The notes beneath the pieces are model-generated. The model saw nothing but the letters and a program-made list of their open reading frames with translations. It was not told the DNA's origin and searched no databases. The position numbers and the translations under genes are program-made. From Parcubacteria group bacterium GW2011_GWA2_47_26 (GTDB lineage Bacteria > Patescibacteriota > Patescibacteriia > GWA2-47-26), in contig LCOG01000002.1 in the NCBI GenBank assembly GCA_001001705.1, positions 20,056 through 84,055 of the forward strand: a DNA stretch of 64,000 bases, given 5' to 3'. Positions 3,127 to 58,942 of the stretch are shown here, one piece after another (the stretch's first letter is position 1; every line of letters starts with the position of its first letter).

Positions 3127-3130
3127 TCTA

Positions 3131-3170
3131 TTTGTGACCTAGTCACATTTTTATGTGGCTAGGTCACAAA
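3131..3170. promoter_or_regulatory. Inverted repeat TTTGTGACCTAGTCACAT-tttt-ATGTGGCTAGGTCACAAA between pilC and the first pilin gene
   Basis: Near-perfect dyad; half-site repeated at 8309. Confidence 0.45.
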
Positions 3171-3258
3171 TCACATCACAAAGGGTCTATCGTAAGTCCA
3201 CTAGATTATGTTATACTAAATATATTCAAGCTATGTGGATAACTGACACCGAAGGTGT

Positions 3259-4568: not shown

Positions 4569-5504
4569 ATGAATATAATTTTTGTCATAATACTTGGCCT
4601 TGTCGTGGGCAGTTTTTTGAATGCCTATATTTTTCGTTTGCATAGAAGTACAACTCTTAACCCTTCCCTGCATAACCCCCTCCAACTCCCCCTTATCTTA
4701 AGGGGGAGAGATCGATCACCCCCCCCTCTTAGGATAAGAGGGGGTGAGGGGGAGTTACGAAGTGTCTGGCGCGGCAGGTCATACTGTCCAAAATGTAAAA
4801 AACCCTTAGCCTGGTATGAACTGATTCCAGTTCTGTCGTTTATTTTACAGTTGCGCCGTTGTCGCGGCTGTAAGCAAAGGATTGATTGGCAGTACCCGGT
4901 GGTGGAGTTGAGTACGGCAGTTCTGTTTGTGCTGGCTTATCTAGCACAAAGAATTATGAATCAGGCCGTAATTCATGATTTCCTATTCCTGATTCAACAA
5001 CTGGTAGCCTGGTACTTGCTTTCCGTCCTTGTCATCCTTTTCGTTTTTGATCTCCGCTATGGCCTAGTGCCGGATAGAATGGTGTTGCCTGCGATTGTGA
5101 TAGCGTTTTTTAGCATGGTCATCCTAAATGCAGTGAAGGATCCCATGATTCCCGATATAGACGGGATTCTTCGCTTCGCTCAGAATGGCACAAACCTCTA
5201 CGTTCTCTTAGCCATCGCTGTCGGCGCCGGATTTTTTGCTTTACAATACTACGCTTCAAAAGGCCGCTGGCTTGGCGCTGGCGATATTCGTATTGGCGCT
5301 TTAATGGGAGCAATGTTGGGCTGGCCGCTGATTATTGAGGCACTGGTTCTATCCTACATGATCGGCGGAGTCGTTGGACTGCTATTGATTGCAACAGGTA
5401 AAAAGCGTTTTGGCCAAACTGTGCCTTTAGGAACATTTTTAACTCTGGGCACAGCAATAACTTTTTTATATGGCGAACAAATTTGGCATTGGTATTGGGG
5501 ATAA
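4569..5504 (+). CDS. pilD: Prepilin peptidase PilD (A24 family); carries an in-frame family E palindromic element
   Basis: CPKC...CRGC tetracysteine motif before multiple TM helices, A24 peptidase core; ORF track starts at 4467 but hydrophobic N-terminus MNIIFVIILGLVVGSF starts at ATG 4569. Confidence 0.8.
   Translation: MNIIFVIILGLVVGSFLNAYIFRLHRSTTLNPSLHNPLQLPLILRGRDRSPPPLRIRGGEGELRSVWRGRSYCPKCKKPLAWYELIPVLSFILQLRRCRGCKQRIDWQYPVVELSTAVLFVLAYLAQRIMNQAVIHDFLFLIQQLVAWYLLSVLVILFVFDLRYGLVPDRMVLPAIVIAFFSMVILNAVKDPMIPDIDGILRFAQNGTNLYVLLAIAVGAGFFALQYYASKGRWLGAGDIRIGALMGAMLGWPLIIEALVLSYMIGGVVGLLLIATGKKRFGQTVPLGTFLTLGTAITFLYGEQIWHWYWG
4671..4766. repeat. Family E element (two hairpin units) within pilD
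   Basis: CATAACCCCCTCCAACTCCCCCTTATCTTAAGGGGGAGAG...CCCCCCCTCTTAGGATAAGAGGGGGTGAGGGGGAGTTACGAAGTG. Confidence 0.8.
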
Positions 5505-8294: not shown

Positions 8295-8308
8295 ATTATG
8301 GGGTAATG

Positions 8309-10469
<2,161 letters not shown>

Positions 10470-10489: not shown

Positions 10490-12355
10490 GTGATACATAT
10501 TATGCTTTCATCAGTTGATGAAATAAAAATACGACTGGATATTGTTGATTTTATTTCGACGTATGTGCAGTTAAAAAGAGCAGGCGCCAATTTTAAGGCG
10601 CTTTGCCCTTTTCATACTGAAAAAACGCCATCATTCATGATCTCCAAGGCAAAGCAGATGTGGTACTGTTTTGGTTGTAATGAAGGCGGGGATATTTTTA
10701 AGTTTTTAATGAAGATGGAAGGATTGGATTTTCCCGAAGCCCTAAAAATTTTAGCGGATAAGGCCGGGGTGGAGTTGCCCAAATACGACAAGCGGCTTGA
10801 AAGTCAAAAAAATACTCTACTAGAAATTCTGCGGCTAGCAGTAGAATTTTATTCAAAACAGTTGCATGCTCCGGCAGGACAGTCGGCTTTGAATTATTTG
10901 CAAAGGCGCGGTTTATCCGAAAATGTGATCAATCAGTTTGCCTTAGGTTATGCGCCGGATTCTTGGGATGCTCTTACTAACACCTTGCGTGCGCGATTTA
11001 AACCTGAAGACATATTTGCAGCCGGCCTTGTTGTGAAGAAAAATAGGGACGTTTCTAATTTTGCAAAGCAAAATTTAGAGACGTCCCATTTTTCCTCGTA
11101 CTACGACCGTTTTCGTCATCGGATTATGTTTCCCATCCGTGATGTCAACGGCAATGCAGTGGGCTTTACAAGTCGGCTTTTGGACGAGAAACGCGCTGAA
11201 GGCAAGTATATTAATACCCCCGAAACCATGCTCTACAACAAAAGCCGCGTGCTTTATGGGTTGGATTTAGCGCGCCAAGCTATGCGCCAATTGAATTACG
11301 CCGTGATTGTAGAGGGCAATATGGACGTGATTGCCTGCCATCAGTTTGGCATGTCTAATGTGGTGGCCGCCTCCGGCACTGCCATGACCATCGATCATCT
11401 TAGATTGCTCAAACGCTATACAAATAATCTTGCCATTGCCTTTGATGCTGATCCGGCTGGCGTCAGTGCCGCGAAACGCGGTATTGATCTTGCTCTGCAA
11501 GAAGGAATGAGGGTCAAGATTATTACAATTCCCAAAGATTGCGGCAAGGATCCCGATGAATGTATTCGTAAGAATAAAAAGGCTTGGGCCATTGCAGTTG
11601 GTGCGGCTCGCGAAGTCATGGATTATTATTTGGAGCGTGCAACTCGCAATTTTGATATAAAAACCGCAAAGGGTAAATCCGATTTTGCCAATCTCCTAAT
11701 GACCGAAATTAAAAAATTGCCGGATTTGATAGAACAAGATTTTTGGTTGAAAAAAGTTGCCGAGGCCTTGCGCGTTGATGATAAGTTATTGCGGGAGCAG
11801 ATGGCAAGAGTTGGTAACGCCCCTCAACCTCCTCTTAAGTTAAGAAAGGGAGTTACGCGTGAGGTGCCGGCAGAGACTAATATGCGCCCGAGGGCCGAGC
11901 TACTTTCGGAACGACTGCTTGCCCTTTTTCTGGCCGTGCCGCAATACGCGGAAAGCATCATTGAAGCTGTGCTTCCGGAGATGTTTTGTCCCGCGGGCAA
12001 TCAAGACCTTTACACCCAACTTGTGCAATGTTATACTGCTTATAATTCACAAGGCTCCGCTTCGGCGGGGGCTGATTTCAGCCAATTTTGGCATAACTGG
12101 TGCGTAAATCACGCACCAGAACTTTCATCCACAGCCGCTATTCTTGAACTTTATAAAGACAAGGAGTTTGCGGGTTGGGACGACATCCAGTTAAGGCGGG
12201 AAAAAAATTTTTTAACTAAAGAAATTCGGCGCGAATATTTACACAAGCGCCGTTTTGAGCTTACCGAAGCAATGCGCCAAGCCGAGAAAGAGGATGATAA
12301 AGCGCAGGTGGCTGAACTTACCCGCGAATTTGAGGCGCTTGCGGCGCAAGAATAG
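10490..12355 (+). CDS. dnaG: DNA primase DnaG (in-frame family F and E elements)
   Basis: CPFHTEKTPSF...CFGC zinc-binding domain, TOPRIM region. Confidence 0.9.
   Translation: MIHIMLSSVDEIKIRLDIVDFISTYVQLKRAGANFKALCPFHTEKTPSFMISKAKQMWYCFGCNEGGDIFKFLMKMEGLDFPEALKILADKAGVELPKYDKRLESQKNTLLEILRLAVEFYSKQLHAPAGQSALNYLQRRGLSENVINQFALGYAPDSWDALTNTLRARFKPEDIFAAGLVVKKNRDVSNFAKQNLETSHFSSYYDRFRHRIMFPIRDVNGNAVGFTSRLLDEKRAEGKYINTPETMLYNKSRVLYGLDLARQAMRQLNYAVIVEGNMDVIACHQFGMSNVVAASGTAMTIDHLRLLKRYTNNLAIAFDADPAGVSAAKRGIDLALQEGMRVKIITIPKDCGKDPDECIRKNKKAWAIAVGAAREVMDYYLERATRNFDIKTAKGKSDFANLLMTEIKKLPDLIEQDFWLKKVAEALRVDDKLLREQMARVGNAPQPPLKLRKGVTREVPAETNMRPRAELLSERLLALFLAVPQYAESIIEAVLPEMFCPAGNQDLYTQLVQCYTAYNSQGSASAGADFSQFWHNWCVNHAPELSSTAAILELYKDKEFAGWDDIQLRREKNFLTKEIRREYLHKRRFELTEAMRQAEKEDDKAQVAELTREFEALAAQE
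11041..11095. repeat. Family F hairpin element within dnaG
   Basis: AAATAGGGACGTTTCTAATTTTGCAAAGCAAAATTTAGAGACGTCCCATTTTTCC. Confidence 0.75.
11820..11859. repeat. Family E single unit (degenerate) within dnaG
   Basis: CCCCTCAACCTCCTCTTAAGTTAAGAAAGGGAGTTACGCGTG. Confidence 0.55.
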
Positions 12356-14217: not shown

Positions 14218-16340
14218 GCGCAGAAGTATTGTGCATGGCAATTAATTATCAACGCGAACTAAACGCCGAGCAGTTGCGTGTAGTCAATGACGGAAACGGT
14301 CCTTGTTTAGTTTTAGCCGGAGCTGGAACAGGCAAGACGCGGACCATTGTGTACCGCGTTGCTTATTTATTGGAACAAGGCATTGATCCGGGCAAGATTT
14401 TGTTGGTTACTTTTACCAATAAAGCCAGCCGCGAGATGTTAAGAAGAGTGGAAATTTTGCTTGGCCACACGCCCGAAGGTCTTTGGGGCGGAACTTTTCA
14501 TCATGTGGGCCATGCAATTTTGCGCCGTTATGGATCGCGCATCGGACTCGCGTCCGGTTTTACTATTTTAGATCAGGATGACAGCATGGAATTGCTAAAA
14601 TCAACTATGGCAGAGCAGGGCCTGTCCACTAAAAAAGATGATAAATCTTTTCTAAAACCCGAAGTATTAGATAACTTAATTAGCTTTTCTGTAAATAGCG
14701 CGCGCGCATTGCCAGAGCTTGTTGAGGAATGGATACCTAAACATGCACATCTAACGCCGGAAATTTTACGCCTCGCAAGCGCCTACGAGCAAAAAAAGCG
14801 CGAACGTAATGTTGTAAGTTTTGATGATTTGCTTTATTTCTGGCTATGCCTTTTGCGTGAGAGGCCCGAGGTGCGCGAGAGTCTAGGCGGTAAGTTTGAT
14901 TATATATTGATTGATGAATATCAGGATACAAATCGTTTGCAAGGTATGATCGTTGAAGAACTTGCTCGTCAAAGTGAAGGCGGTGGGGCTTGTGGTAAAA
15001 ACGTTCTTGTGGTTGGCGATGATGCCCAATCAATCTACGCCTTCCGTGCCGCGACCGTTGAAAATATTATGCGTTTTCCCGAGGTATTTCCCGGCGCAAA
15101 AATTTTCCGTCTTGAACAGAATTATCGCTCTACGCAAGCAATTCTTGATCTGGCGAACGCATGCATCGCTTGCAATCGCCGGCAATTTGAAAAGGAACTT
15201 AAAAGTGCTTGTCATCCTGAGCGAAGCGAAGGATCCCGGCCTAATCGAGAATCACGGGATTCTTCGGCCTCTGGCCTCAGAATGACAGACTATGAGGGCA
15301 CTAGGCCGGAGCTTATTGGGTGCGCTGACGCTACCCAAGAGGCTAGATTTATTGCGGGCAAGGTTTTGGAGTTTCACGACGAAGGCGAATCTCTCCTTGC
15401 AAGCGCTGTACTCTTCCGTGCGGCCTATCAAGCCATGCAGCTTGAACTAGAACTTCAAAAGCGAGGGGTGCCCTATGTTGTTCGGGGCGGTATTCGTTTT
15501 TTTGAACAAGCGCATATCAAAGACGTGGTGGCGTATCTAAAAGTGGTAGCGAATCCAACTGACGAGATTGCTTGGCAGCGTGTGCTAAAAATGGAAGAGG
15601 GAATTGGTGCAAAAACTGCCGCGGTGCTTGCGCAACGCATGATTCATAACTCCCCCCAACCCTCTCTTACCTTAAGAGGTGGTGATATAGTGAATATTCC
15701 TACCCAAAGAGCGCGGGGAAGTGAGGAGGGGTTACAAAAAGTTCTTGCCCGTATTGAAAAATTAAAATCTTTAGATAAGGTCTATAGAATGATTGATTAT
15801 TTATTAGAAGCATTTTACGAAAATTATGCCGAAGCAGTTTTTGAAAACGCGCGAGAGCGGCTTGAAGATTTAAGACAACTCGCGCTTTTTGCCAAAGAGT
15901 ACCAAGAGCTAGAACAATTTTTAGCTGATGCAACCCTTTCAGAAGGCTTTCGCGGGGAAAGAAAAGGGAACGTTTCTAATTTTGTCGAGCAAAATTTAGA
16001 GACGCTCCCTTTTCTTAATGAAGATCAAGAGCATCTAGTGCTCTCTACGATTCATCAAGCTAAAGGCTTGGAGTGGAAAAATGTTTTTGTGGTGGGTCTG
16101 ATTGATGGTCAATTTCCGCATTACAAATCTCACGGTAGCCGCGCAGAGCTCGAAGAAGAACGGCGTCTTTTTTATGTGGCAGTGACGCGCGCCAAAGAGC
16201 AGCTCTTTCTAACCTATCCCGTAACCAGTATGGGCTCGCTTGGCACAGCCGTGCACCAGCCGTCTTTATTTGTCCGCGAACTCAACCCGCATTTGTTTAA
16301 GACCATGCTGGATGACGAAGAAGTCGTCGTTGAAATATAA
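14214..16340 (+). CDS. uvrD: ATP-dependent DNA helicase UvrD/PcrA family (in-frame family A, E and F elements)
   Basis: Walker A AGAGTGKT, helicase motifs through VTRAKEQLFL. Confidence 0.9.
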   Translation: MSAEVLCMAINYQRELNAEQLRVVNDGNGPCLVLAGAGTGKTRTIVYRVAYLLEQGIDPGKILLVTFTNKASREMLRRVEILLGHTPEGLWGGTFHHVGHAILRRYGSRIGLASGFTILDQDDSMELLKSTMAEQGLSTKKDDKSFLKPEVLDNLISFSVNSARALPELVEEWIPKHAHLTPEILRLASAYEQKKRERNVVSFDDLLYFWLCLLRERPEVRESLGGKFDYILIDEYQDTNRLQGMIVEELARQSEGGGACGKNVLVVGDDAQSIYAFRAATVENIMRFPEVFPGAKIFRLEQNYRSTQAILDLANACIACNRRQFEKELKSACHPERSEGSRPNRESRDSSASGLRMTDYEGTRPELIGCADATQEARFIAGKVLEFHDEGESLLASAVLFRAAYQAMQLELELQKRGVPYVVRGGIRFFEQAHIKDVVAYLKVVANPTDEIAWQRVLKMEEGIGAKTAAVLAQRMIHNSPQPSLTLRGGDIVNIPTQRARGSEEGLQKVLARIEKLKSLDKVYRMIDYLLEAFYENYAEAVFENARERLEDLRQLALFAKEYQELEQFLADATLSEGFRGERKGNVSNFVEQNLETLPFLNEDQEHLVLSTIHQAKGLEWKNVFVVGLIDGQFPHYKSHGSRAELEEERRLFYVAVTRAKEQLFLTYPVTSMGSLGTAVHQPSLFVRELNPHLFKTMLDDEEVVVEI
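15211..15287. repeat. Family A element within uvrD (encodes HPERSEGS...)
   Basis: GTCATCCTGAGCGAAGCGAAGGATCCC...GGGATTCTTCGGCCTCTGGCCTCAGAATGAC. Confidence 0.8.
15647..15692. repeat. Family E single unit within uvrD
   Basis: CATAACTCCCCCCAACCCTCTCTTACCTTAAGAGGTGGTGATATAGTG. Confidence 0.6.
15958..16016. repeat. Family F element within uvrD
   Basis: GGAAAGAAAAGGGAACGTTTCTAATTTTGTCGAGCAAAATTTAGAGACGCTCCCTTTTCT. Confidence 0.75.
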
Positions 16341-16402: not shown

Positions 16403-16440
16403 ATTATCACTTTTCATGCGGCCGCATGAAAAGTGATAAT
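16403..16440. promoter_or_regulatory. 38-bp perfect palindrome ATTATCACTTTTCATGCGGCCGCATGAAAAGTGATAAT, candidate operator for the downstream ArsR-family regulator
   Basis: Perfect dyad symmetry, 75 bp upstream of the ArsR-type gene, no T-run after it. Confidence 0.5.
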
Positions 16441-16803: not shown

Positions 16804-16923
16804 TCCCGTTAGAAGCCGCGGTCGCGATACATTGGAGAGCTAAATATTATGCAAAAGGTCTATATTATAACAACAAACATTAACCAGCAGATCGGGAAGA
16901 CCGCGACCTGCTTCTAACGGGAT
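16804..16923. repeat. Family B element between the ArsR-family gene and nifS, ending on nifS ATG
   Basis: TCCCGTTAGAAGCCGCGGTCGCG ... GAAGACCGCGACCTGCTTCTAACGGGAT|G. Confidence 0.8.
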
Positions 16924-18331
16924 GAACGAGAAACGCACAGTATATCTTGATCATGCCGCGGCCACACCTCTTGATCCGCAAGTTAAAGAGGCTATGTTGC
17001 CATATCTGGGCGAACAATATGGCAACCCCTCGGCAATCTATGCGCCGGGGCGCATTGCTCGAGAAGCTTTGGATAATGCGCGCGAGACAGTAGCACAGGC
17101 TTTAAATTGCACCGCCGCCGAAATTATGTTTACCGGTAGCGGCACCGAGTCTGCTAATCTGGCCATTTTCGGCGTCGCACGAGGGTATCGTCGTGACCAA
17201 GTCACTGCCGCAGGCGCAACCCGTGACTTGGTCACAAAAGGCCACATCATCACCACCAACATTGAACATCATGCTGTTTTAAATTCCTGCAAAGCCCTTC
17301 AAAACGACGGTTTTGAAGTTACTTATTTGAAAGTAGATCATGACGGGCTTGTAACAGCCGAGCAATTTAAAGCCGCTATTCGGCCGGACACGATTTTAAT
17401 TTCCATCATGTACGCCAATAACGAGATTGGCACAATTGAGCCGATACATGAACTCACGCGCGCAATGCAAGAGCGCAAAAAAGAACTCGGACGCAAGCCA
17501 AATGACCCCCCATTTTTTCATACTGATGCCTGTCAGGCCGCGGGATATTTAGATATTGATGTGAAGAGCCTCGGGGTGGACCCCGTTAGAGGCAGGTCGC
17601 CCCAAGGTGACCGTAGCACTGCCTCTAGCGGGGTGGCCTCTAGCGGGGTGGATTTAATGACAATCAATGGAAGCAAGATTTATGGGCCCAAAGGCACTGG
17701 TGCTCTTTTTGTGCGCCGTGGCTTGAAACTGCAACCGCTAATTTATGGGGGCGGACAAGAAATGAAATTGCGCTCTGGAACAGAGAATGTGGCTGGTATT
17801 GTGGGGTTGGCCACGGCGCTTAAAATTGCGACGCAACTACGCGATAAAGAGGGGCAGCGCTTAATTGCACTGCGTGATCAACTGCTTACTGGCATTATGG
17901 ATCGCATTCCAAAGGTGGTATTAAATGGACACGCCACCAAACGTTTGCCGAACAATGTTGATGTGTCAATTTTAGACATTGAAGGCGAAGCCATGCTTTT
18001 GTATCTGGATGAGCATGGTATATATGTATCAACCGGCAGCGCTTGTGATTCCCAAGCTCTGGATCCCTCGCATGTGATTTTGGCTCTAGGCAAGCCCTAT
18101 GAATTCGCGCACGGCAGTATCCGGTTTACTTTGGGGCGCGCGACTAGCGCAGCAGATATTGATTATGTATTGGATGTCCTGTCGCAGATTGTAAGCACCC
18201 TGCGCAAAATATCGCCGGTGCGCATAGATGTGAATGCAACCGGTATAACTGCTAAGACCGCGTTTGTTGGGGACGGTCTGCCGCATTTCGTAAAACAGCA
18301 GAGTAATAGAGGAAAAAAGGACCGCCTCTAA
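16922..18331 (+). CDS. nifS: Cysteine desulfurase NifS/IscS (class V aminotransferase) with in-frame family D and C elements; stop codon lies inside a family F element
   Basis: PLP-binding region, TGSGTESANLAI, active-site Cys loop STGSACDS. Confidence 0.9.
   Translation: MNEKRTVYLDHAAATPLDPQVKEAMLPYLGEQYGNPSAIYAPGRIAREALDNARETVAQALNCTAAEIMFTGSGTESANLAIFGVARGYRRDQVTAAGATRDLVTKGHIITTNIEHHAVLNSCKALQNDGFEVTYLKVDHDGLVTAEQFKAAIRPDTILISIMYANNEIGTIEPIHELTRAMQERKKELGRKPNDPPFFHTDACQAAGYLDIDVKSLGVDPVRGRSPQGDRSTASSGVASSGVDLMTINGSKIYGPKGTGALFVRRGLKLQPLIYGGGQEMKLRSGTENVAGIVGLATALKIATQLRDKEGQRLIALRDQLLTGIMDRIPKVVLNGHATKRLPNNVDVSILDIEGEAMLLYLDEHGIYVSTGSACDSQALDPSHVILALGKPYEFAHGSIRFTLGRATSAADIDYVLDVLSQIVSTLRKISPVRIDVNATGITAKTAFVGDGLPHFVKQQSNRGKKDRL
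17192..17235. repeat. Family D element (GTGACCAAGTCAC doublet) within nifS
   Basis: GTGACCAAGTCACTGCCGCAGGCGCAACCCGTGACTTGGTCAC. Confidence 0.8.
17575..17657. repeat. Family C element within nifS (encodes VDPVRGRSPQGDRSTASSGVA)
   Basis: GTGGACCCCGTTAGAGGCAGGTCGCCCCAAGGTGACCGTAGCACTGCCTCTAGCGGGGTGGCC with duplicated terminal arm. Confidence 0.8.
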
Positions 18332-18369
18332 TTTTGCAGAGCAAAATTTAGAAGTGGTCCCTTTTTCCT
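18313..18369. repeat. Family F element containing the nifS stop codon and the iscU ORF 5' end
   Basis: GAAAAAAGGACCGCCTCTAATTTTGCAGAGCAAAATTTAGAAGTGGTCCCTTTTTCC. Confidence 0.8.
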
Positions 18370-19633: not shown

Positions 19634-20605
19634 ATGACAATAGGGGAGGCTTTGAAGTGGGGCATAAAAAAACTCACTGGCTCTGGGGTGGACCCCGTTA
19701 GAGGCAGGTCGCCTCAAGGTGACCGTAGCACCGCCTTTGGCGGGGCGGCCTCTAACGGGGTAGATTCTCCTGCGCTGGATGCGGAGGTTATTTTAGCGCA
19801 TGTGCTCGGTGTTCCCCGCGCCGAGCTCTATATCCACCCCTTGACCACTCTACTACCGGCAGAAGCGGCGACATATAAAATTTTGATCAAGCGGCGTTTT
19901 AAGCGCGAGCCCGTCGCCTATATTACGGGTCATAAAGAATTTTACGGCATGGATTTCATCGTGGACAAATCTACGCTTATTCCTCGACCGGAAACCGAAA
20001 TGCTCGTGGAGGAAGCGCTAAAGGCGGTTAAGGCTAGGAACACAAAGACATTGTGTGTTGTTGATGTTGGCACTGGTTCGGGTTGTATTATTGTATCCTT
20101 AACTAAAATATTAAACCAAATAAGCCGCCACAAGACCTTGCATTTTTTTGCCACAGAGATCTCACCGCAAGCTCTTAAAATAGCCAAGCTCAACGCCAAA
20201 CGCCATAGTCTTGCTGATAAAATAGTTTTTAGAAAAGGCTATTTGCTCAAACCGATCTTATCCAATCTAGAAAAAACGGTACCGCAATCAAGATTATTGA
20301 TTACGGCAAACTTGCCCTATTTGCCTACAGCCGAGTGGCGGCGCGCCATGGAAGACGTGCATTATGAACCGCGCCAAGCTCTGGATGGCGGTAAAGACGG
20401 ACTAGAATACTACCGGCATTTGTTTGAGCAATTAAAATCCTGGCGCGGCATTAAAAAATTTGCTAACGTGGCCGTGCTCGCTGAAATTGATCCGCATCAG
20501 GTTAATGAATTTACAACTCTGATAAAATCATTTTTCTCGCGAGCCAGTTTATCAATCAAAAAAGATCTGGCCAGCCTTGATCGAGTTGCGATCGCGGTAC
20601 TATGA
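19634..20605 (+). CDS. prmC: Release-factor glutamine methyltransferase PrmC/HemK (in-frame family C element)
   Basis: VVDVGTGSGCI SAM motif, NLPYLP (NPPY-type) motif. Confidence 0.8.
   Translation: MTIGEALKWGIKKLTGSGVDPVRGRSPQGDRSTAFGGAASNGVDSPALDAEVILAHVLGVPRAELYIHPLTTLLPAEAATYKILIKRRFKREPVAYITGHKEFYGMDFIVDKSTLIPRPETEMLVEEALKAVKARNTKTLCVVDVGTGSGCIIVSLTKILNQISRHKTLHFFATEISPQALKIAKLNAKRHSLADKIVFRKGYLLKPILSNLEKTVPQSRLLITANLPYLPTAEWRRAMEDVHYEPRQALDGGKDGLEYYRHLFEQLKSWRGIKKFANVAVLAEIDPHQVNEFTTLIKSFFSRASLSIKKDLASLDRVAIAVL
19687..19762. repeat. Family C element within prmC
   Basis: GGTGGACCCCGTTAGAGGCAGGTCGCCTCAAGGTGACCGTAGCACCGCCTTTGGCGGGGCGGCCTCTAACGGGGTAGA. Confidence 0.8.
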
Positions 20606-24512: not shown

Positions 24513-24619
24513 TTCCATTCAAGGTGCCTCGTTGATTATGTCCGATGAAATTTTAATCAAAGGTACCGATGGCCCGCCTACGTTTCTGCTCCGTTTTAAT
24601 TCCGAGCAATAAAAAAAGA

Positions 24620-24643
24620 CTAGCATACTCGCTAGTATGCTAG
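24620..24643. promoter_or_regulatory. Inverted repeat CTAGCATACT-cgct-AGTATGCTAG upstream of the TrpR/YerC-like gene
   Basis: 10-bp arms; same arms recur at 25305. Confidence 0.5.
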
Positions 24644-24690: not shown

Positions 24691-25308
24691 ATGGCAAAAT
24701 TTAGTTCCCGACAAAGACTGGACCATAAACAGCGGCAAAAGGTATTGCTCGAGCTTTGCCATGCGTTAGTTGTGGTCAAGAAATTGGATGAAGCCGCTAA
24801 AGTGCTTGGCGATTTATTATCTGACCAAGAAATTGAAATGATTGCTAAGCGTTTGCAAATTGCAAAATTCTTGCTTCAGGACAAGAAGTACGAGGAAATT
24901 ATGGAGCAGTTAAAAGTTAGTGCTACTACTATTGCCCGAGTAAACCTTTGGCTCCAACAGGCCGGTGATGGGTTTCGGATGGTGATGTCCCGTGGGCTCG
25001 CTAAGAACAGTGTCAAGATTCCGGAGTGGCAGCCTCCGGCACGCAAAAGCGAAATGGCACGACGTTTCCCGCTTTATTATTGGCTGCAGGGATTGCTGGA
25101 AGGCATTATCCGCGCCGCAAATAATCGTCAGCGTGCAAAGATGCTGGAGACGCTCAAAGTGTTGAGGGTTTCTGGTAAAGGCAAGCGCGAAGTGTTTCGC
25201 TATGTGGAAGAGCTGATTCATAATCAGCAACGGAGCCCAAATCCGCGTCGTTTGCGGTCACTTGAGCTTGAAAAGGAAATGCAATTGGAGAAAGTAAAAC
25301 AATACTAG
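24691..25308 (+). CDS. TrpR/YerC/YecD-like DNA-binding protein
   Basis: LSDQEIEMIAKRLQIAKFLLQDKKYEEIMEQLKVSATTIARV helix-turn-helix resembling the Trp-repressor-like YerC family. Confidence 0.55.
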   Translation: MAKFSSRQRLDHKQRQKVLLELCHALVVVKKLDEAAKVLGDLLSDQEIEMIAKRLQIAKFLLQDKKYEEIMEQLKVSATTIARVNLWLQQAGDGFRMVMSRGLAKNSVKIPEWQPPARKSEMARRFPLYYWLQGLLEGIIRAANNRQRAKMLETLKVLRVSGKGKREVFRYVEELIHNQQRSPNPRRLRSLELEKEMQLEKVKQY

Positions 25309-25328
25309 CATACTAGCTAGTATGCTAG
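25305..25328. promoter_or_regulatory. Perfect palindrome CTAGCATACTAGCTAGTATGCTAG overlapping the stop codon of the TrpR-like gene
   Basis: Second copy of the same dyad; extends to a 30-bp perfect palindrome. Confidence 0.5.
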
Positions 25329-25472
25329 TATTAGCCAGATCAGATTCGGATCTTGCAAATCTTGTAAAAAAAGGACGGGATCACAAAAAGGCCCTTGCGG
25401 GCCCTTCGGATGAATTATCTATAATTTATAATAACACATGGGGTATAATTGTCAAGGATGGGGTGTGGATAG

Positions 25473-26807
25473 GTGAACACTATGCAAGATGAAATTTTAG
25501 TTAAAGGCACAGATGGGAAGTGGTATCTTCTGCAAGGGGAGGAGTTGGTGCCGTATGGGGCAGGTACGCAGGGACCAGATAAGCAGGCGGCAGGCGTGAA
25601 ACAAGAGTTGCCTAAAGGGGTGACAGAAGAGAGGCATAAAAAATTGGAAAAGGTGACCAAAGCGGTAGAGGAGCCACATGTGGCAAAAGAAATTTTCTTG
25701 CCAGCCGTAGCTACTCCGCCCCTTCCGGCTGTTTCTGCTCCCGCGCTTCGTGACTTGGTCACTGCCGCAGGCGCAACACGTGACCAAGTCACAGCTCCGG
25801 CCTATATTCCGCCGGAGTTGCCCGAATTAGTCGCGCCTGCTTTGGGGCCGGTAACACACGAAGGACATCCTTTATATAAGGAATTGCAGGAGCTTGTGGA
25901 TCAGGTGGTAAGTGAGAGCGCCGAAATAATTCGCGCTCAAGCGCCAGCTTGGGACGAAATTTTGCAAAAACGTTTCCGGTTCGTGATCTCGGCACGTTTG
26001 CGGGATATGCGGGACGCGGCAGAAACCAAAGCCTTGATATTGCGTGATCAGAAGATTGGTGGTTTAGGTTTGCGCGAGGCAGACGCGCAAAAGGTCACGG
26101 AGTTTACCGAGCGCGTTTTTCAAGAATTTCAAAAAAAGTGGCAAGAGTTTGAGGCAAAGCGCATTGAAGAATGGAAGCGCAAGAAGCGCGAAGAAGCGGC
26201 TCATAGCGAAGAAGTTTGCAAGAAAAAAGAAGAGCAGGAGATGGAGGAGAGATACGCCCGCCTTACAGGCGAGGTTGCAAAAGTGGCAGAGGTGGCAAAT
26301 GAGCCAAAGATTAAGGTACCCAAACCTCAAACCTCAAACCTCAAACCTCAAACAGCCCCAAATATTAAAGCTCAAAAGCCAAGGATAATAGAGCAATCCA
26401 GAACATCTGTCACTTCTGAAACATTTGCAACATCTGTGACTTTGCCGCGAAGCAGCAAAGTCACAGATGTCCGTACCCCGCCGAAACTCTTGGGACCGGT
26501 GGAGGAACTGCAAAGCATAAGCCCCCAAGATTTTAGACGGCTGGGCGCGCCTGGCGAGGCAACTGCAAAAATCAAGGCCAAAGTAGATTTTTTGGCGCAA
26601 GAATCATTTACAAAATACAGAAATGGAATCAAGGCTTGGCAAAGTTCGCCACTGCACAGACTGTATTTATTCATTAGCGGAATATCCTTACGGGAACGCA
26701 AGAGTATTGAGCAAGTTATAGGTGATTTACAGGTGCAAAACAAAGACACACTCACACCTGACGAATTTCATGCTATAATGGAGTTGAATAAACAATTGAG
26801 GTTTTAA
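25473..26807 (+). CDS. Hypothetical K/E-rich coiled-coil protein with PQTSNLK repeats
   Basis: Long ORF; contains an in-frame family D element and a 7-nt tandem repeat. Confidence 0.55.
   Translation: MNTMQDEILVKGTDGKWYLLQGEELVPYGAGTQGPDKQAAGVKQELPKGVTEERHKKLEKVTKAVEEPHVAKEIFLPAVATPPLPAVSAPALRDLVTAAGATRDQVTAPAYIPPELPELVAPALGPVTHEGHPLYKELQELVDQVVSESAEIIRAQAPAWDEILQKRFRFVISARLRDMRDAAETKALILRDQKIGGLGLREADAQKVTEFTERVFQEFQKKWQEFEAKRIEEWKRKKREEAAHSEEVCKKKEEQEMEERYARLTGEVAKVAEVANEPKIKVPKPQTSNLKPQTAPNIKAQKPRIIEQSRTSVTSETFATSVTLPRSSKVTDVRTPPKLLGPVEELQSISPQDFRRLGAPGEATAKIKAKVDFLAQESFTKYRNGIKAWQSSPLHRLYLFISGISLRERKSIEQVIGDLQVQNKDTLTPDEFHAIMELNKQLRF
25750..25791. repeat. Family D element within the 25473 gene
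   Basis: GTGACTTGGTCACTGCCGCAGGCGCAACACGTGACCAAGTCAC. Confidence 0.8.
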
Positions 26808-26816: not shown

Positions 26817-27020
26817 TCCCGTTAGAAGCCGCGGTCGTTGGTTTGTGGAGTAGATAATATTCATATGCAGAAAGGTCAAATGGTTTTAATAAATAACCTC
26901 GCAGGGCGGGCGACCGCGACCTGTCCCGTTAGAAGTGTTGTTCTAACGGGTAATCAATCAGGAGTCTGGGGAGTGTTCAGTATTATGGGCACTTCTAACG
27001 GGACCTGCTTCTAACGGGAT
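26817..27020. repeat. Family B element (expanded/composite) ending on the ATG of the PrgI-like gene
   Basis: ATCCCGTTAGAAGCCGCGGTCG ... GGCGACCGCGACCTGTCCCGTTAGAAGTGTTGTTCTAACGGG ... ACTTCTAACGGGACCTGCTTCTAACGGGAT|G. Confidence 0.75.
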
Positions 27021-32408: not shown

Positions 32409-34697
32409 ATGATCCGCTATAACTTATCAAGTCCAGTAAGTGCACTATCGCATATTGGCCGCACCGTGGAGACTCAACTGCGACACCTAGGAGTTCTCAC
32501 CATACAGGATCTCCTTTTTTATTTTCCGGTTCGCTACGACGATTTGCGCAATATCACCGAGATTAAAGATTTAAAAATCGGCGAAAGGGCAGTAGTGCGT
32601 GGAAAAATTGAGCTTATTCAAAGCCGCCGCAGCAAATATAGAAAGAAACTCCTTACCGAGGCCATTGTCTCTGATGCGACGGGCAGTTTAAAAATACTTT
32701 GGTTTGGCCAGCCTTGGCTAATTAAAATGTTTAAAACCGGCGATGAGCTGTATTTGGTTGGCGAAGTTAAAGACGATGGCTCCGGCGCGTATATGTCCTC
32801 GCCAAGCTATGAGCGCGCAAGCGGGCACGCGACAATTCATACGGGCCGCATTGTGCCAGTTTACGCTTTGACCGAAAAGCTTTCTCAAAAACAAGTGCGT
32901 TTTTTAATGAGTCGCGCTTTTCCGCTCGCTTCGAGCATAGTTGATTGGCTGTCTCAAGATTTGAGGACAAGATACAAATTATTGGATTTAAAACGCGCTA
33001 TTTCTTTTGTGCATTTTCCGCCGGATAATCAAAAAATGGAAGCGGCCCGGCGGCGTTTGAAATTTGATGAATTGCTGCGCTTGCAGATTTTTGCCGCTAA
33101 AGTAAAACAGGAACTCAAAAAATTACCCGCCCCGAAAGCGGTATTTAATGAGAAGGCGACAAAGCAATTTGTACAAGGCTTGCCTTTTGAGTTAACCGAG
33201 GCGCAACGCAAAGCGGCCTGGGAAATTGTCAAAGATATTAGTCGGCCGCGCCCAATGAATCGTTTGCTGGAGGGCGATGTTGGATCGGGAAAGACTGTCG
33301 TGGTTGCGATTGCGGCATTGAATGCGGTTGGTGTTTGTGACCATGTCACCGCGGCTAGTGACCTGGTCACAAACAAAGGTCAGGTGGCCATTATGGCGCC
33401 GACCGAAATTTTGGCGCGTCAACATTTCAAAACATTTTCAAAATTACTTGGACCCCATGGTGTGCAAGTAGAGTTACGCACCAGCAGTGAAAAAGGTAAA
33501 AAGGGGATTATAGACAGCAATGTAGTTGTGGGAACACATGCTTTAATACAAGACAGTGTAAAGTTCAAAGATTTGGTGCTCGCGGTTGTTGATGAACAGC
33601 ACCGTTTTGGCGTGCGTCAACGGCAAGCGCTCAAGGATAAGCGCGAGGATGGAAAAATGCCCCATCTGCTTACTTTGACCGCCACGCCAATCCCGCGTAG
33701 TTTGGCTTTAGTATTTTATGGCGATCTTGATCTCTCCGTGCTTAATGAAATGCCCAAGGGGCGGCAGAGAATTGAAACCGTGTTGGTAAGTAACGCTTCC
33801 CAACCCCCTCCTCATAAACCCACCCACCCTCCCCTTAAGTTAAGGGGAGGAGGCGAAAAAGGGACCGCCTCTAATTTTGCAAAGCAAAACTTAGAAGTGG
33901 TCCCTTTTTCGCGGGAACAGGCCTATCAATTTATCCGTACTGAAGTTGCCGCCGGCCACCAAGTCTTTTGGACATGCCCGATTATTGATCCTTCCGACAC
34001 GCTTGGTGTAAGAGCCGCGACCGAAGTATTTGAGCATTTGCGCACCGAAATTTTTTCTGATCTGCGCATTGGACTCTTACACGGGCGCATGAAGTCAAAA
34101 GAAAGAGAAAAAGTGATGGAAGCGTTTGTAGGCCCATCTTGTCATCATGAGCGTAGCGAAGGATCTCGGGATTCTTCGCCTGCGGTTCAGAATGACAGAG
34201 GACACACGATTGATATTCTCGTAGCCACGCCGGTTATTGAAGTTGGTATTGATGTGCCTAATGCTACAGTCATGGTTATTGAAGGAGCACAGCGTTTTGG
34301 CTTAGCCCAGCTTCATCAATTTCGCGGACGCGTTGGCCGGGGCGAGGCGAAATCGTATTGTTTGTTGATGGTGGAAGAAAAAGGGACCGCCTCTAATTTT
34401 GCTGCGCAAAATTTAGAAGTGGTCCCTTTTTCTGCGCGTATCAAGGCATTTTTAGAGTGCGACAATGGTTTTGAACTCGCCGAGCGCGATTTGACGCTTC
34501 GCGGTCCTGGCGATACTTATGGCATTGCCCAATCCGGTTTTCCGGAATTCAAAATCGCGAGTTTCGCGGATGTTGAAATTGCCAAAGAGGCCAAAGAAGC
34601 GGCGGAGGTGATTTTAACGCGCGATCCGGAACTTACGAACTATTCCGAGCTCAAACAGGCGATACTTGATAAAGAAGGCCGGACGCATTTAGAATAA
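32409..34697 (+). CDS. recG: ATP-dependent DNA helicase RecG carrying five in-frame palindromic elements
   Basis: Wedge domain, Walker A GDVGSGKT, DEQH box, helicase C motifs QFRGRVGR. Confidence 0.9.
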   Translation: MIRYNLSSPVSALSHIGRTVETQLRHLGVLTIQDLLFYFPVRYDDLRNITEIKDLKIGERAVVRGKIELIQSRRSKYRKKLLTEAIVSDATGSLKILWFGQPWLIKMFKTGDELYLVGEVKDDGSGAYMSSPSYERASGHATIHTGRIVPVYALTEKLSQKQVRFLMSRAFPLASSIVDWLSQDLRTRYKLLDLKRAISFVHFPPDNQKMEAARRRLKFDELLRLQIFAAKVKQELKKLPAPKAVFNEKATKQFVQGLPFELTEAQRKAAWEIVKDISRPRPMNRLLEGDVGSGKTVVVAIAALNAVGVCDHVTAASDLVTNKGQVAIMAPTEILARQHFKTFSKLLGPHGVQVELRTSSEKGKKGIIDSNVVVGTHALIQDSVKFKDLVLAVVDEQHRFGVRQRQALKDKREDGKMPHLLTLTATPIPRSLALVFYGDLDLSVLNEMPKGRQRIETVLVSNASQPPPHKPTHPPLKLRGGGEKGTASNFAKQNLEVVPFSREQAYQFIRTEVAAGHQVFWTCPIIDPSDTLGVRAATEVFEHLRTEIFSDLRIGLLHGRMKSKEREKVMEAFVGPSCHHERSEGSRDSSPAVQNDRGHTIDILVATPVIEVGIDVPNATVMVIEGAQRFGLAQLHQFRGRVGRGEAKSYCLLMVEEKGTASNFAAQNLEVVPFSARIKAFLECDNGFELAERDLTLRGPGDTYGIAQSGFPEFKIASFADVEIAKEAKEAAEVILTRDPELTNYSELKQAILDKEGRTHLE
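33337..33370. repeat. Family D short element within recG
   Basis: GTGACCATGTCACCGCGGCTAGTGACCTGGTCAC. Confidence 0.65.
33793..33854. repeat. Family E unit within recG, directly abutting a family F element
   Basis: CCCAACCCCCTCCTCATAAACCCACCCACCCTCCCCTTAAGTTAAGGGGAGGAGGCG. Confidence 0.65.
33855..33910. repeat. Family F element within recG (copy 1)
   Basis: GAAAAAGGGACCGCCTCTAATTTTGCAAAGCAAAACTTAGAAGTGGTCCCTTTTTC. Confidence 0.8.
34141..34197. repeat. Family A element (short form) within recG
   Basis: GTCATCATGAGCGTAGCGAAGGATCTCGGGATTCTTCGCCTGCGGTTCAGAATGAC. Confidence 0.8.
34376..34432. repeat. Family F element within recG (copy 2)
   Basis: GAAAAAGGGACCGCCTCTAATTTTGCTGCGCAAAATTTAGAAGTGGTCCCTTTTTCT. 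Confidence 0.8.
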
Positions 34698-34698
34698 G

Positions 34699-34775
34699 GA
34701 AAAGAGAACGCCTCTAGTAAAAAAGAGAACGCCTCTAATTTTGCTGCGCAAAATTTAGAAGTGGTCCCTTTTTCT
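34699..34775. repeat. Family F element with partial left-arm duplication, just after recG stop
   Basis: AAAAGAGAACGCCTCTAGTAAAAAAGAGAACGCCTCTAATTTTGCTGCGCAAAATTTAGAAGTGGTCCCTTTTTC. Confidence 0.75.
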
Positions 34776-34873
34776 GCCCAGCCGGTATATATGCCCCGTG
34801 TCAAATCATCTAATCATGACACCGAACCGTACACTTGGGTATACGGAGAGTGCCACAATATGCTTTCCAAAAC

Positions 34874-34909
34874 GTCCCGTGTTTGGCTCGATCGAGCCAA
34901 ACACGGGAC
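34874..34909. repeat. 36-bp perfect palindrome GTCCCGTGTTTGGCTCGATCGAGCCAAACACGGGAC
   Basis: Direct reading; followed by tandem GAAACGTCATAGG x2 at 34922..34950. Confidence 0.7.
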
Positions 34910-35254
34910 GAGTAGCGTTAAGGAAACGTCATAGGGAAACGTCATAGGGAACTAGGGTATAATTTTAGATGATTTAATTTATGACAATTTAATTTGTGCA
35001 CTTGACGCAGGATGGCCTGCTATTGTAGTATGTCAAAATTACCGCGTTGGTCAGGGGTTTTAAGTAAATGAGCCCCCTCACTAGCGCGGTAATAAATTAG
35101 CGTAAACACAGTGAACACATGGGCTGCCCACCCAAGCCGGGTGTTGTGCCAACCTTTTGATGGAGGAGCGGGGCGAATTAGCTGACACGATCCGCCACTA
35201 CGCGGGGGGTCACGAAGTACAAGCAACCTCGGACCGAAGAGGGGATCTGCAACA

Positions 35255-37461: not shown

Positions 37462-38163
37462 TTAGCGTAATAATTCCTGTATAGATTGGTTTACAGTATT
37501 TTGATCAATTGCTCCTGAAAATTTCCTCTCGCCAATGAAGAAATACGGCGTGGCGTCAACGCGCAAAAGTATGGCCTCGTTGAAGTTGCGCGCGACAAGA
37601 TCTTTGGTGCGTTCGGTTTTAAGGCAGTCTTCAAAGGTGGCTGTGTTTAAGCGAAGCTCCTGCGCTAGCGGGATAAAACTGGTTTCAGCTAATTCAGTTT
37701 GCCGTTCAAACAAAAGATCATGATATTCCCAGAATTTTCCTTGCTCCTCGGCGCATCGTGCGGCCTGCGCCGCTTTTTCCGCCAAAGGATGCAAACGCGT
37801 ATTCGGCAGATCTTTCCAAACTAATTTTACGCGGCCGCTGTACTGTTCAAGCACGCTTTTCAAAGTGGCCTCCACTTCCGCGCAAGAAGGACAGAAAAAA
37901 TCCCCGAACTCTACAATTGCAATAGCTGTGACCAAGTCACTTTCCGTTGTGGCTTGGTCACGGCCCGCGGGATCTCCGCGTACCGGATCAGTGGAGCGGA
38001 TAATGGGGCGGGAAGGCAGTGCGATCGTTGTGACCAAGTCACTTTCCGTTGTGACTTGGTCACGGTCGTCCGGCGGTATAAATGTATAATACGCCACAAT
38101 ACCAACAAAACCCGCCAAAAGTAGAGCGACAATTACGATAATGATGAAAGAAGGAGTACGCAT
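37462..38163 (-). CDS. dsbA: Membrane-anchored DsbA-like thiol:disulfide oxidoreductase (two in-frame family D elements)
   Basis: N-terminal TM, thioredoxin CPSC active site, DsbA-like helical insert. Confidence 0.7.
   Translation of the reverse strand: MRTPSFIIIVIVALLLAGFVGIVAYYTFIPPDDRDQVTTESDLVTTIALPSRPIIRSTDPVRGDPAGRDQATTESDLVTAIAIVEFGDFFCPSCAEVEATLKSVLEQYSGRVKLVWKDLPNTRLHPLAEKAAQAARCAEEQGKFWEYHDLLFERQTELAETSFIPLAQELRLNTATFEDCLKTERTKDLVARNFNEAILLRVDATPYFFIGERKFSGAIDQNTVNQSIQELLR
37928..37961. repeat. Family D variant within dsbA (copy 1)
   Basis: GTGACCAAGTCACTTTCCGTTGTGGCTTGGTCAC. Confidence 0.75.
38030..38063. repeat. Family D variant within dsbA (copy 2)
   Basis: GTGACCAAGTCACTTTCCGTTGTGACTTGGTCAC. 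Confidence 0.75.
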
Positions 38164-44140: not shown

Positions 44141-44218
44141 TCCATACGAAAGTACGAAATATTACGAAAGATACGAAAAATTTTCGTATCTTTCGTAGCG
44201 CAGTTTTCGTAATTTCGT

Positions 44219-45544: not shown

Positions 45545-45576
45545 AATAACCATGAACCCATAGCAGGTTTTTCCGT

Positions 45577-45654
45577 TGTCATTCTGAGCGAAGCGAAGAA
45601 TCCCGTGGAAAATGAACGGGATCCTTCACTACGCTACGCTCCGTTCAGGATGAC
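45577..45654. repeat. Family A element, intergenic rseP-pheS
   Basis: GTCATTCTGAGCGAAGCGAAGAATCCCGTGG...GGGATCCTTCACTACGCTACGCTCCGTTCAGGATGAC. Confidence 0.8.
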
Positions 45655-50807: not shown

Positions 50808-50845
50808 AGCAGATTAAGCAATTGCTTACTCTGCCTAATCTGCTA
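50808..50845. repeat. Family H hairpin AAGCAGATTAAGCAATTGCTTACTCTGCCTAATCTGCT after rplJ
   Basis: AGCAGATTAG/CTAATCTGCT stem. Confidence 0.6.
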
Positions 50846-52396: not shown

Positions 52397-52440
52397 AGTT
52401 ATCCACATGAGATATTGCGCAAAATCGTGGGGGGGGGGGG
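52397..52440 (+). repeat. 44-bp direct repeat AGTTATCCACATGAGATATTGCGCAAAATCGTG(G)12, copy 1, abutting the clp-like stop
   Basis: Identical to copy at 53669 including 12-G homopolymer. Confidence 0.8.
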
Positions 52441-52479: not shown

Positions 52480-52872
52480 ATGCTAGATAACGAAGTCACC
52501 AACAATGAAATCATGGAGTTTCTAAAAGAAACAGTAGCGACCAAAGAAGATCTTAAAGCCTTCGCCACGAAAGATGATCTTAAATCTTTTGCCACCAAGG
52601 AGGATCTGAAGGCCTTTGCGACCAAAGAAGATTTGAAAGCCTTTGCCACGAAGGAGGATTTGTACAGGGCCAAAGACGAGATTTTAGCGCGTTTGGCAGA
52701 ATTTCAGTTTGAGCTTGAAGAGATTAAAAAACGGCTGGAGAAAATTGAAAAGACGCTTAAGGAAGATACAGATGCACTAGTTATGGAGGTAGAACAATTG
52801 AAAGAACGGGTTGCAGTATTAGAAGTGCATCTTGGAATTCAAAAAATGGCCGCAGTAAGCAATAATTTATAG
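52480..52872 (+). CDS. Hypothetical coiled-coil protein with five ATKEDLKAF tandem repeats
   Basis: 27-nt tandem coding repeats. Confidence 0.5.
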   Translation: MLDNEVTNNEIMEFLKETVATKEDLKAFATKDDLKSFATKEDLKAFATKEDLKAFATKEDLYRAKDEILARLAEFQFELEEIKKRLEKIEKTLKEDTDALVMEVEQLKERVAVLEVHLGIQKMAAVSNNL

Positions 52873-53668: not shown

Positions 53669-53712
53669 AGTTATCCACATGAGATATTGCGCAAAATCGT
53701 GGGGGGGGGGGG
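53669..53712 (+). repeat. 44-bp direct repeat with 12-G tract, copy 2
   Basis: Identical to 52397..52440. Confidence 0.8.
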
Positions 53713-58933: not shown

Positions 58934-58942
58934 CTACTAATT

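Follow-up and report, generated by a model that had tools for sequence, protein, structure and literature searches.

Repetitive extragenic palindromes (REPs) are not confined to the spaces between genes: they also occur inside genes, often in dimeric form, with about 20-30 residues encoded by a dimer, and at times two to an open reading frame (ORF); the genes affected include those for repair proteins and for tRNA synthetases (Di Nocera et al. 2013, PMC3733652). What replicates has been recognised to be the inverted REP doublet, or REPIN, with compensatory changes in its arms and decayed singlets beside it (Bertels and Rainey 2011, PMC3116915), and the Rickettsia palindromic elements (RPEs), which are inserted in frame, have been reviewed (PMC10969869). 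Here we describe a hairpin repeat, Family D, in a 64-kb stretch of Parcubacteria group bacterium GW2011_GWA2_47_26 (contig LCOG01000002.1), hereafter called the window. Family D is probably a small interspersed, selfish and non-autonomous hairpin repeat of REPIN build, whose genic copies survive only in permissive loops. The host belongs to the candidate-phyla-radiation bacteria, whose genomes are tiny and have been recovered almost exclusively from metagenomes; our literature search found no description of repeats of this kind in them.

With REPs and REPINs, Family D shares dispersed palindromic units of 20-40 nt in many copies, mostly arranged as an inverted doublet with a spacer that can form one long hairpin or two small ones. 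It also shares their compensated stems, remnant-like singlets, coexisting subfamilies and lineage-specific abundance, as well as the occurrence of intragenic dimers, sometimes two per ORF, in repair genes and tRNA synthetases. Like RPEs (PMC10969869), it is palindromic and lies in frame in unrelated housekeeping genes of a small-genome bacterium, where it is translated as extra segments at places at which the fold permits this, and it is found between genes, too.

Results

Structure and copies of Family D

Positions are those of the 64-kb window, while scaffold counts include a further 8 kb upstream (contig L127, reached through pilC), 72 kb in total. The following copies were found:

L127:3473-3506: additional intergenic doublet, 4.6 kb upstream of the window, between the RNase H gene and the first pilus gene
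3130-3171, unstranded: intergenic doublet of the CTA/TAG subfamily, ATTTGTGACCTAGTCACAT-TTTT-ATGTGGCTAGGTCACAAAT, with 19-nt arms that are 95% complementary
8307-8330, unstranded: intergenic singlet (half element), TGATTTGTGACCTAGCCACATAAA, between the last ORF of the pilus cluster and ligA
17193-17235, plus strand: 43-nt copy in the nifS-like cysteine desulfurase gene 16922-18331, encoding (R)DQVTAAGATRDLVT
25750-25792, plus strand: 43-nt copy in the Uhrbacteria-specific gene 25473-26807, encoding (R)DLVTAAGATRDQVT
33337-33370, plus strand: 34-nt copy in recG (32409-34697), encoding CDHVTAASDLVT; the palindrome extends to 33332-33375
37928-37961, minus strand: 34-nt copy in dsbA (37462-38163, minus strand), encoding RDQATTESDLVT and preceding the first thioredoxin-fold strand
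38030-38063, minus strand: 34-nt copy in the N-terminal linker of dsbA, past the membrane helix, encoding RDQVTTESDLVT
47784-47826, plus strand: more diverged 43-nt copy in the B3/4 domain of pheT (gene 46895-49609), encoding SDHATAVGATRGLVT

At 17193-17235, a GTGACCAAGTCAC arm is followed by a TGCCGCAGGCGCAACCC spacer and a GTGACTTGGTCAC arm. The original prediction, made from the window alone, took the 13-mer for a perfect palindrome that occurs twice per copy. Two 13-mers are indeed present, but the reverse complement of GTGACCAAGTCAC is GTGACTTGGTCAC, and the two are inverted copies that pair into a 13-bp hairpin stem, rather than the same palindrome repeated. Each single arm is a 5-3-5 near-palindrome, and the consensus of the 13-nt core reads GTGAC-YWR-GTCAC. 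Family D elements are bounded by terminal inverted repeats, their 13-nt arms being perfectly or nearly complementary.

The elements fall into two size classes of 34 nt (8-nt loop) and 43 nt (17-nt loop), the former comprising the copies in recG, dsbA (two) and the intergenic one at 3134-3167, the latter those in the nifS-like gene, in gene 25473-26807 and in pheT. The length range of 34 to 44 bp predicted for the element thus holds at its lower end, while the longer form measures 43 nt; the 'GT' in the predicted spacer, TTTCCGTTGT, belongs to the second arm, and the true spacers are 17 or 8 nt long. The 17-nt spacers consist of TGCCGCAGGCGCAAC plus CC or AC, the 8-nt spacers are TTTCCGTT in dsbA and CGCGGCTA in recG. 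The 15-nt loop core TGCCGCAGGCGCAAC is shared unchanged by nifS and gene 25473, has a single altered nucleotide in pheT and is found nowhere else in the window. Because the spacer is kept between genes and between species, the repeated unit is the whole 34- or 43-nt hairpin.

The number of copies, those at 17193-17235 and in the other predicted genes included, is far beyond chance. GTGACYWRGTCAC occurs nine times in the 64 kb, compared to 0.00 times in 100 dinucleotide shuffles, and GTGACNNNGTCAC, the exact GTGAC-N3-GTCAC, ten times, compared to 0.00 in 100 dinucleotide-preserving shuffles. With up to two mismatches, the window holds 15 distinct arm positions at eight sites, arranged as seven inverted doublets and one singlet, where about 0.5 matches are expected; on the 72-kb scaffold there are 17 arms at nine sites (eight doublets and one singlet) against about 0.3 expected. 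Lone 13-mers are almost never seen, with 16 of the 17 scaffold arms sitting in inverted doublets.

As single-stranded DNA, the doublets fold with -13 to -18 kcal/mol (z -3 to -10), the intergenic doublet at 3130-3171 reaching -18.2 kcal/mol (z -9.99), and the singlet, tested at 8313, has no fold by itself (z -0.9). Most of the stems in the 13 copies that we tabulated are fully paired, and five copies have one mismatch or G-T wobble. Changes in one arm are offset in the other, at positions 4/10 and 6/8 (GTGGC..GCCAC; CAA/TTG and TTG/CAA), which shows that it is the pairing between the arms that is conserved, not a fixed binding word. The arm centres read CAA..TTG in nifS and TTG..CAA in gene 25473, though the orientation of the loop is identical in the two.

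Genic copies are insertions in permissive loops

One repeat family had been predicted to lie in frame in several genes and to give peptides such as RDQVTAAGATRDLVT, and this was borne out: all genic copies are in frame and add 12 or 15 residues each, an example of a peptide that spans the junctions being YRRDQVTAAGATR. They amount to six copies in five genes, however, rather than to copies in six genes. The two in dsbA, originally put at 100 bp apart, are separated by 102 bp and agree at 36 of 37 nt, counting one flanking nucleotide on one side and two on the other. While the elements themselves have 34 or 43 nt, the insertions in genes comprise 36 or 45 nt, that is 12 or 15 codons. Six of the nine scaffold sites are inside ORFs, which, at an ORF-based coding fraction of 0.90, is near the expectation for random placement.

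In RecG, CDHVTAASDLVT comes after the Walker A helix, ahead of the strand that follows, and is missing from all 14 orthologues compared. Several of these orthologues, in different Uhrbacteria, carry unrelated inserts in the same loop (alignment columns 355-400, window residues ~307-323), for example PSPGLRPPSP...GRGEGEG; this loop is a shared permissive site that different repeat families have hit repeatedly. An AlphaFold model of RecG, computed from the orthologue alignment, assigns residues 311-321 a pLDDT below 50, between flanking blocks at 85 and 80, and the other low-confidence segments of the model coincide with other repeat-derived inserts. Alignment of DsbA with three syntenic orthologues leaves a clean gap of 12 residues precisely at RDQATTESDLVT, and the second insert falls within the variable N-terminal linker. 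The NifS insert lies in a gap relative to the solved desulfurase 9wep_A, the PheT insert in a loop that is gapped against the solved PheT 2rhq_B, and an insert in MnmA of a third organism, described below, in a gap relative to a solved structure. In these comparisons, every genic copy presents itself as an insertion when set against orthologues or homologues of solved structure, and it is in surface loops or linkers that these copies are located.

The reading frames of the inserts are not random. Phase 2 of every variant holds TGA, phases 0 and 1 are open on both strands in the genic variants, and in the intergenic CTA/TAG variant each of the six frames is interrupted by stops. The eight independent genic copies, those of relatives included, are all read in phase 1 (xGT GAC ...), and in all five independent genic copies of the 43-nt class the loop reads AAGAT or AVGAT, not GCACG or CCACG, as the cysteine-rich reverse would. 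This bias in phase and orientation is consistent with a filter for small, hydrophilic loop peptides free of cysteine and tryptophan.

Family D in related and distant genomes

A scan of metagenome contigs with the loop and the arm ends matched six contigs, one from this genome (L116, 100% identical across the nifS copy), two from a second species, Uhrbacteria RIFCSPHIGHO2_02_FULL_46_47 / RIFCSPLOWO2_12_FULL_47_10, and three from a third organism. The loop of the 43-nt form is also present in the second species (L024, L119, L121, L130, L131) and in the third organism (L117, L118, L120), where the element lies within mnmA. The second species has a copy in its orthologue of gene 25473-26807, about 190 residues downstream of the site in the window, and each species is empty at the other's site. 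The arms of the relatives are perfect 6-1-6 palindromes, GTGACCWGGTCAC, from which the arm arrangements in nifS and gene 25473 each differ by one compensated base-pair change. An assembly artefact was rejected, since independent assemblies agree (L116, P0001, L117/L118/L120).

Over about 18 kb, the second species has one doublet only, and not a single arm turned up in the 93.8 kb sampled from five other Uhrbacteria, three of which share synteny with the recG-dsbA region. Many copies in one lineage, few in its sister and none in others is a pattern typical of proliferating repeats. Two scans of viral contigs gave no matches, and a peptide search with a 54-residue tandem of the encoded peptides gave one candidate and none that scored. 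A profile of three 43-nt copies, run against 1.84 billion cluster representatives, recovered only the window's own protein, in a set whose 50%-identity representatives hide insert-bearing members, so that no conclusion on spread follows.

A permissive pattern, GTGACNNNGTCACN{4,20}GTGACNNNGTCAC, hit at least 115 loci in genome contigs, most of them unrelated direct repeats in actinobacteria and others. Among the matches listed, we found a near-identical hairpin core, GTGACCGAGTCAC...GTGACTCGGTCAC, with 12 of 13 positions the same, in a Saccharibacteria genome (at least four loci), in another Patescibacteria bin (at least two) and in a contig binned as Nanoarchaeota. The loop of one of these hairpins, TTTCCGTTGAAA in the Patescibacteria bin (L084), is nearly the same as TTTCCGTT of dsbA. 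All these GTGACCGAGTCAC hairpins are intergenic and stand at gene ends with A-run and T-run flanks, like bidirectional terminators.

Intergenic copies and the pilus cluster

The likeness to the intergenic dyads of the pilin cluster that had been noted earlier was confirmed by the related copies at 3130-3171 and 8307-8330. The former lies 4 nt past the pilC stop, upstream of the first pilin gene, and the latter is the exact reverse complement of 3150-3173, so that the pilin and prepilin-peptidase genes are bracketed by a 24-nt exact inverted pair (3150-3173, 8307-8330), 5.1 kb apart. The intergenic unit GATTTGTGACCTAGYCACATAA is arranged head-to-head at L127:3473, tail-to-tail at 3130-3171 and alone at 8307-8330. 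With the third CTA-subfamily copy before the first pilus gene, hairpins mark three boundaries of the type IV pilus cluster; they could serve as operon punctuation or delimit an invertible segment, and these three copies may have a regulatory or recombination role.

Host genes and other repeats in the window

The RecG protein encoded in the window matches, at 100% identity, a partial RecG from Parcubacteria group bacterium GW2011_GWC2_45_7, with Candidatus Uhrbacteria next at 59-65%. Gene 25473-26807 corresponds to UX17_C0030G0016 of the GW2011_GWC2_45_7 assembly and is assigned no family by Pfam, which identifies the other genic hosts as class-V aminotransferase (cysteine desulfurase), RecG, DsbA-like thioredoxin and PheT. 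The roughly 60 ORFs scanned in the window further comprise the type IV pilus cluster, LigA, DnaG, RpoD, a UvrD-like helicase, NifU, type IV secretion-like proteins and cell-envelope enzymes. At the gathering threshold, Rfam matches three tRNAs only, and Family D remains unmatched.

The window holds several other families of hairpin repeats, and 25 of its 53 repeat intervals are inside ORFs. One family, GTCATCCTGAGCGAAGCGAAGGATCCCG and its complement, occurs both between and within genes, at 5118-5187, 8895-8924, 15209-15238, 44423-44457, 45568-45607, 48210-48313, 48858-48922, 55407-55489 and 58910-58934. In pheT it gives HPECSEGSRGS..., to which ERSEGSRDS in recG looks related, though the latter was not detected as a repeat. 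Another, GAAAAAGGGACCGCCTCTAATTTTGC...GCAAAATTTAGAAGTGGTCCCTTTTTC, is found at 11049-11083, 15970-16004, 18312-18367, 33854-33911, 34377-34435, 34720-34777 and 55593-55650, with several copies at gene ends and two inside recG (KGTASNFA.QNLEVVPFS, in low-confidence loops of the model). Repeats of the CCCGTTAGAGGC type lie at 17573-17654, 19685-19766, 6143, 16804, 26815, 26923-27004 and 44475-44553; the 82-nt copy in the nifS-like gene adds VRGRSPQGDRSTASSGVASS between two GVD motifs, and the one at 19685-19766 is inside a prmC-like ORF. Within pheT, a tandem (GCAGATTAA)n encodes KQIKQIKQIKQ, and a related TAATCTGCTTACTCTGCC tandem is found between genes at two places (sites for both: 47518-47566, 50823-50845 and 62749-62794).

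The TrpR-like gene 24691-25308 has near-identical palindromes, TACTAGCATACT.GCTAGTATGCTAG, upstream of it and at its end (24610-24643 and 25295-25332), which could be operator sites. Unique perfect palindromes of 30-40 nt are found between genes at 16403-16440, 34873-34910, 44163-44197, 55341-55380 and 55548-55577, and one of these, 38 nt long, precedes the nifS-like gene by about 480 nt. An exact direct repeat of 44 nt, AGTTATCCACATGAGATATTGCGCAAAATCGTGGGGGGGGGGGG (52397-52440 and 53669-53712), flanks the function-unassigned ORFs 52480-52872 and 52901-53641 and could mark a small inserted module or a duplication; it contains a run of 12 G and the word TTATCCACA, which we take to be DnaA-box-like. 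A hairpin at 26430-26470 was considered as a decayed Family D copy and rejected, its GTCAC belonging to the conserved coding segment SSKVTDVR. At the far end, two independent metagenome contigs with mreB (L125, L126) both stop about 300 bp past the gene (window ~63800-64000), which suggests a repeat or an assembly-breaking sequence just beyond the window.

Discussion

[quoted passage not shown] We have not filed it under any of the three, because it has neither the GTAG/CGTC tag nor a target-site duplication. The terminal tag that defines REPs (PMC3733652) is absent from arms that start with GTGAC or GTGGC; moreover, the stem of a Family D unit has only 5 bp, and Family D is mostly intragenic (six of nine sites), whereas REPs are predominantly extragenic. 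Pfam, furthermore, found no RAYT in the roughly 60 ORFs scanned in the window, and Family D has a candidate-phyla-radiation bacterium as its host. RPEs are Rickettsia-specific and much longer, at about 100-150 bp compared to 34-43 nt and 12-15 residues for Family D. Two of them, RPE-4 and RPE-6, carry the CGTC tag that Family D lacks (PMC3733652), and we found no relatable sequence, the similarity to an RPE consensus not having been computed. With MITEs, Family D has in common the terminal inverted repeats, the lack of coding capacity, the dispersed copies and the occasional in-frame fusion to host ORFs (PMC10969869), but it shows no target-site duplication, is well below the usual MITE size, and no parent insertion sequence with matching ends was identified.

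Two further groups deserve comparison. The pneumococcal SPRITE repeats (listed in PMC10969869) are dispersed, terminator-like hairpins. Beside them stand the GTGACCGAGTCAC hairpins described above, which share 12 of 13 core nucleotides and occur in several copies per genome, but which are intergenic and flanked by A and T runs, in contrast to the mostly genic Family D copies without T runs. The repetitive hairpin elements of sponge mitochondria (PMC2800124) are likewise small hairpins that invade compact genomes, mostly between genes and sometimes at length-variable sites of rRNA or protein genes; their genomes and sequences are unrelated, and the parallel is one of analogy only.

How would such a repeat spread and persist? 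Its architecture is that of a REP doublet (REPIN), two inverted 13-nt cores around an 8-nt or 17-nt spacer, and the family would have expanded in this single Uhrbacteria-like lineage as well as in two or more related organisms. The intergenic copies lie at operon boundaries. Genic copies would persist only where they add whole codons (36 or 45 nt), where neither stops nor cysteine nor tryptophan arise in the frame and orientation that are read, and where they fall in a surface loop or linker; they would be translated as loop-outs of 12 or 15 residues with no required function, as for RPEs and intragenic REPs. Transposases of the IS200/IS605 or RAYT type are not known to leave a target-site duplication. 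For this reason our leading, if tentative, guess for the mobiliser is an enzyme of this class, which would recognise the hairpin in single strands and act in trans.

Several observations weigh against this interpretation. Neither a transposition event nor an excision read nor a presence/absence polymorphism within a population was seen. The flanks contain no consistent direct repeat of 2 nt or more, with matching dinucleotides at one of nine copies only, and no conserved tetranucleotide. As to the tag, the arms start with GTGA or GTGG, CGTC abuts the nifS copy only (one of nine), and GTAG occurs solely inside the pheT loop, through a point change. For the mobiliser, Pfam detects no transposase, RAYT, integrase or restriction-modification gene among the roughly 60 window ORFs. 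The swapped arm centres of nifS and gene 25473, combined with a shared loop orientation, demand more than the copying or inversion of one master. Finally, a uniform phase in eight of eight copies and a uniform orientation in five of five are stronger than can confidently be assigned to peptide tolerance alone, and the effect of orientation cannot be separated from those of gene strand and replication strand, as almost every gene sits on the plus strand and the GC skew is positive throughout the window. A wider version of the mobile-repeat interpretation, which we think doubtful, would address the latter point: the GTGAC-N3-GTCAC core, found among the matches listed in Uhrbacteria-like genomes, Saccharibacteria, another Patescibacteria bin and a Nanoarchaeota-binned contig, may define a Patescibacteria-wide hairpin superfamily moved by an enzyme that recognises the 13-mer, with phase and orientation reflecting strand- or transcription-coupled insertion rather than selection alone.

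The original prediction was that a 13-bp palindrome found this often could be a protein recognition site (a restriction-modification target, or a recombinase or nucleoid-protein site) rather than just a mobile element. The 13-mer would then be bound by a dimeric host protein (as an operator, or by a nucleoid-associated protein or site-specific recombinase), with paired sites 21 or 30 bp apart from centre to centre. Near-palindromic arms are what dimeric helix-turn-helix proteins bind, those of the relatives being perfect palindromes; the spacing is close to two and three helical turns, and the 13-nt core is common to hairpins of distant Patescibacteria. The three CTA-subfamily copies, including the 24-nt inverted pair, stand exactly at the boundaries of the pilus cluster, which they could control or invert. 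Nevertheless, the compensated changes maintain pairing and not a fixed word, the spacers are conserved in sequence and not in length alone, and the genic copies are insertions at unrelated loops of unrelated genes, absent in close relatives; nor does the window contain a candidate regulator or a recombinase gene beside the pilus cluster. Given arms in doublets, conserved spacers and genic insertions, we regard a recognition site as an unlikely explanation. A transposase or recombinase that recognises the 13-mer and mobilises the repeat is plausible, but it forms part of the mobile-element interpretation rather than an alternative to it. An action of the hairpins on RNA, as terminators, attenuators, RNase targets or mRNA stabilisers, has a similarly low probability in our view. 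It would fit the terminator-like placement of the related GTGACCGAGTCAC..GTGACTCGGTCAC hairpins at gene ends with A/T-run flanks, and the full intergenic copy of the window, 4 nt past the pilC stop. Yet no window copy has a T-run after its stem, as an intrinsic terminator would, six of the nine copies are within essential-type genes, where termination would be harmful, the mismatched stem positions are not consistently biased towards G-U on the transcribed strand (in the dsbA copy, the mRNA strand has C-A), and Rfam gives no match. Two known DNA sites were also compared with the 13-mer and set aside: for a CRP-like operator, the site, which reads TGTGA-N5-TCACA, has the wrong spacing, and to Xer/dif sites it bears no resemblance.

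Uptake sequences build up chiefly through substitutions that create single sites in collinear sequence. In Family D, 16 of the 17 arms belong to doublets whose spacers are conserved, and genes have their copies through insertion; the density is low at about one arm per 4 kb, and 94 kb from five related genomes lack the motif. We therefore consider it very improbable that the motif is a DNA-uptake signal for this bacterium's competence and type IV pilus machinery, with inverted pairs as a by-product as in the DNA uptake sequences of Neisseria, even though a short core is conserved across Patescibacteria lineages, often as inverted pairs at gene ends, and copies are found next to the pilus cluster as well as within or close to the DNA-repair genes recG and ligA. 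A target of a restriction-modification system or orphan methylase, or a HIP1-like iterated palindrome, has still less to recommend it. GTGAC and GTCAC in each arm match a recognition site of the GTSAC type, and 25 of the 63 GTSAC sites in the window are inside Family D elements; outside them, GTSAC is mildly depleted (38 observed, about 51 expected under a third-order Markov model), and GTCAC is in the lowest 1.4% of window 5-mers by the ratio of observed to expected. This depletion is weak, however, restriction targets are avoided and not multiplied, and the repeated unit is a 34- or 43-nt sequence with conserved spacers, not a bare word. The restriction-modification system or integrase that the original prediction looked to is not encoded among the roughly 60 window ORFs, the only methyltransferase or endonuclease gene being that of the PrmC protein methylase, which is no cognate enzyme; both the restriction-modification and the nucleoid-site proposal are left unsupported. 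Just as remote is a local and independent origin of each palindrome through template-switching during replication, with no master copy. The lack of target-site duplications and of a transposase would agree with it, as would the extension of complementarity into the flanks of several copies (18-nt arms in recG, a 16-bp stem in dsbA), but identical 13-nt arms and 15-17-nt loops in five genes and three organisms strongly disfavour it.

A mobile hairpin repeat of this kind would extend the phenomenon known from Rickettsia and from REPs to another lineage with reduced genomes, and would add no new principle to it. At 34 to 43 nt, Family D is a very compact case, in which the constraints on frame and orientation can be read directly. 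Assemblies may break at such repeats, though the contigs that we retrieved leave the cause of their ends unshown. If a Patescibacteria-wide superfamily exists, elements of this type would be a main source of lineage-specific peptide insertions in these bacteria. Already in the genomes considered here, interspersed hairpin DNA repeats have supplied short inserted peptides to housekeeping proteins such as RecG, PheT, NifS, DsbA and MnmA, and the same permissive loops are hit by different repeats in different species. Such repeat-derived segments inflate the apparent divergence of proteins and can mislead alignments and domain calls, while at the same time marking the sites at which a protein tolerates insertions. 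The interest of Family D consequently lies mainly in protein evolution and annotation in candidate-phyla-radiation bacteria.

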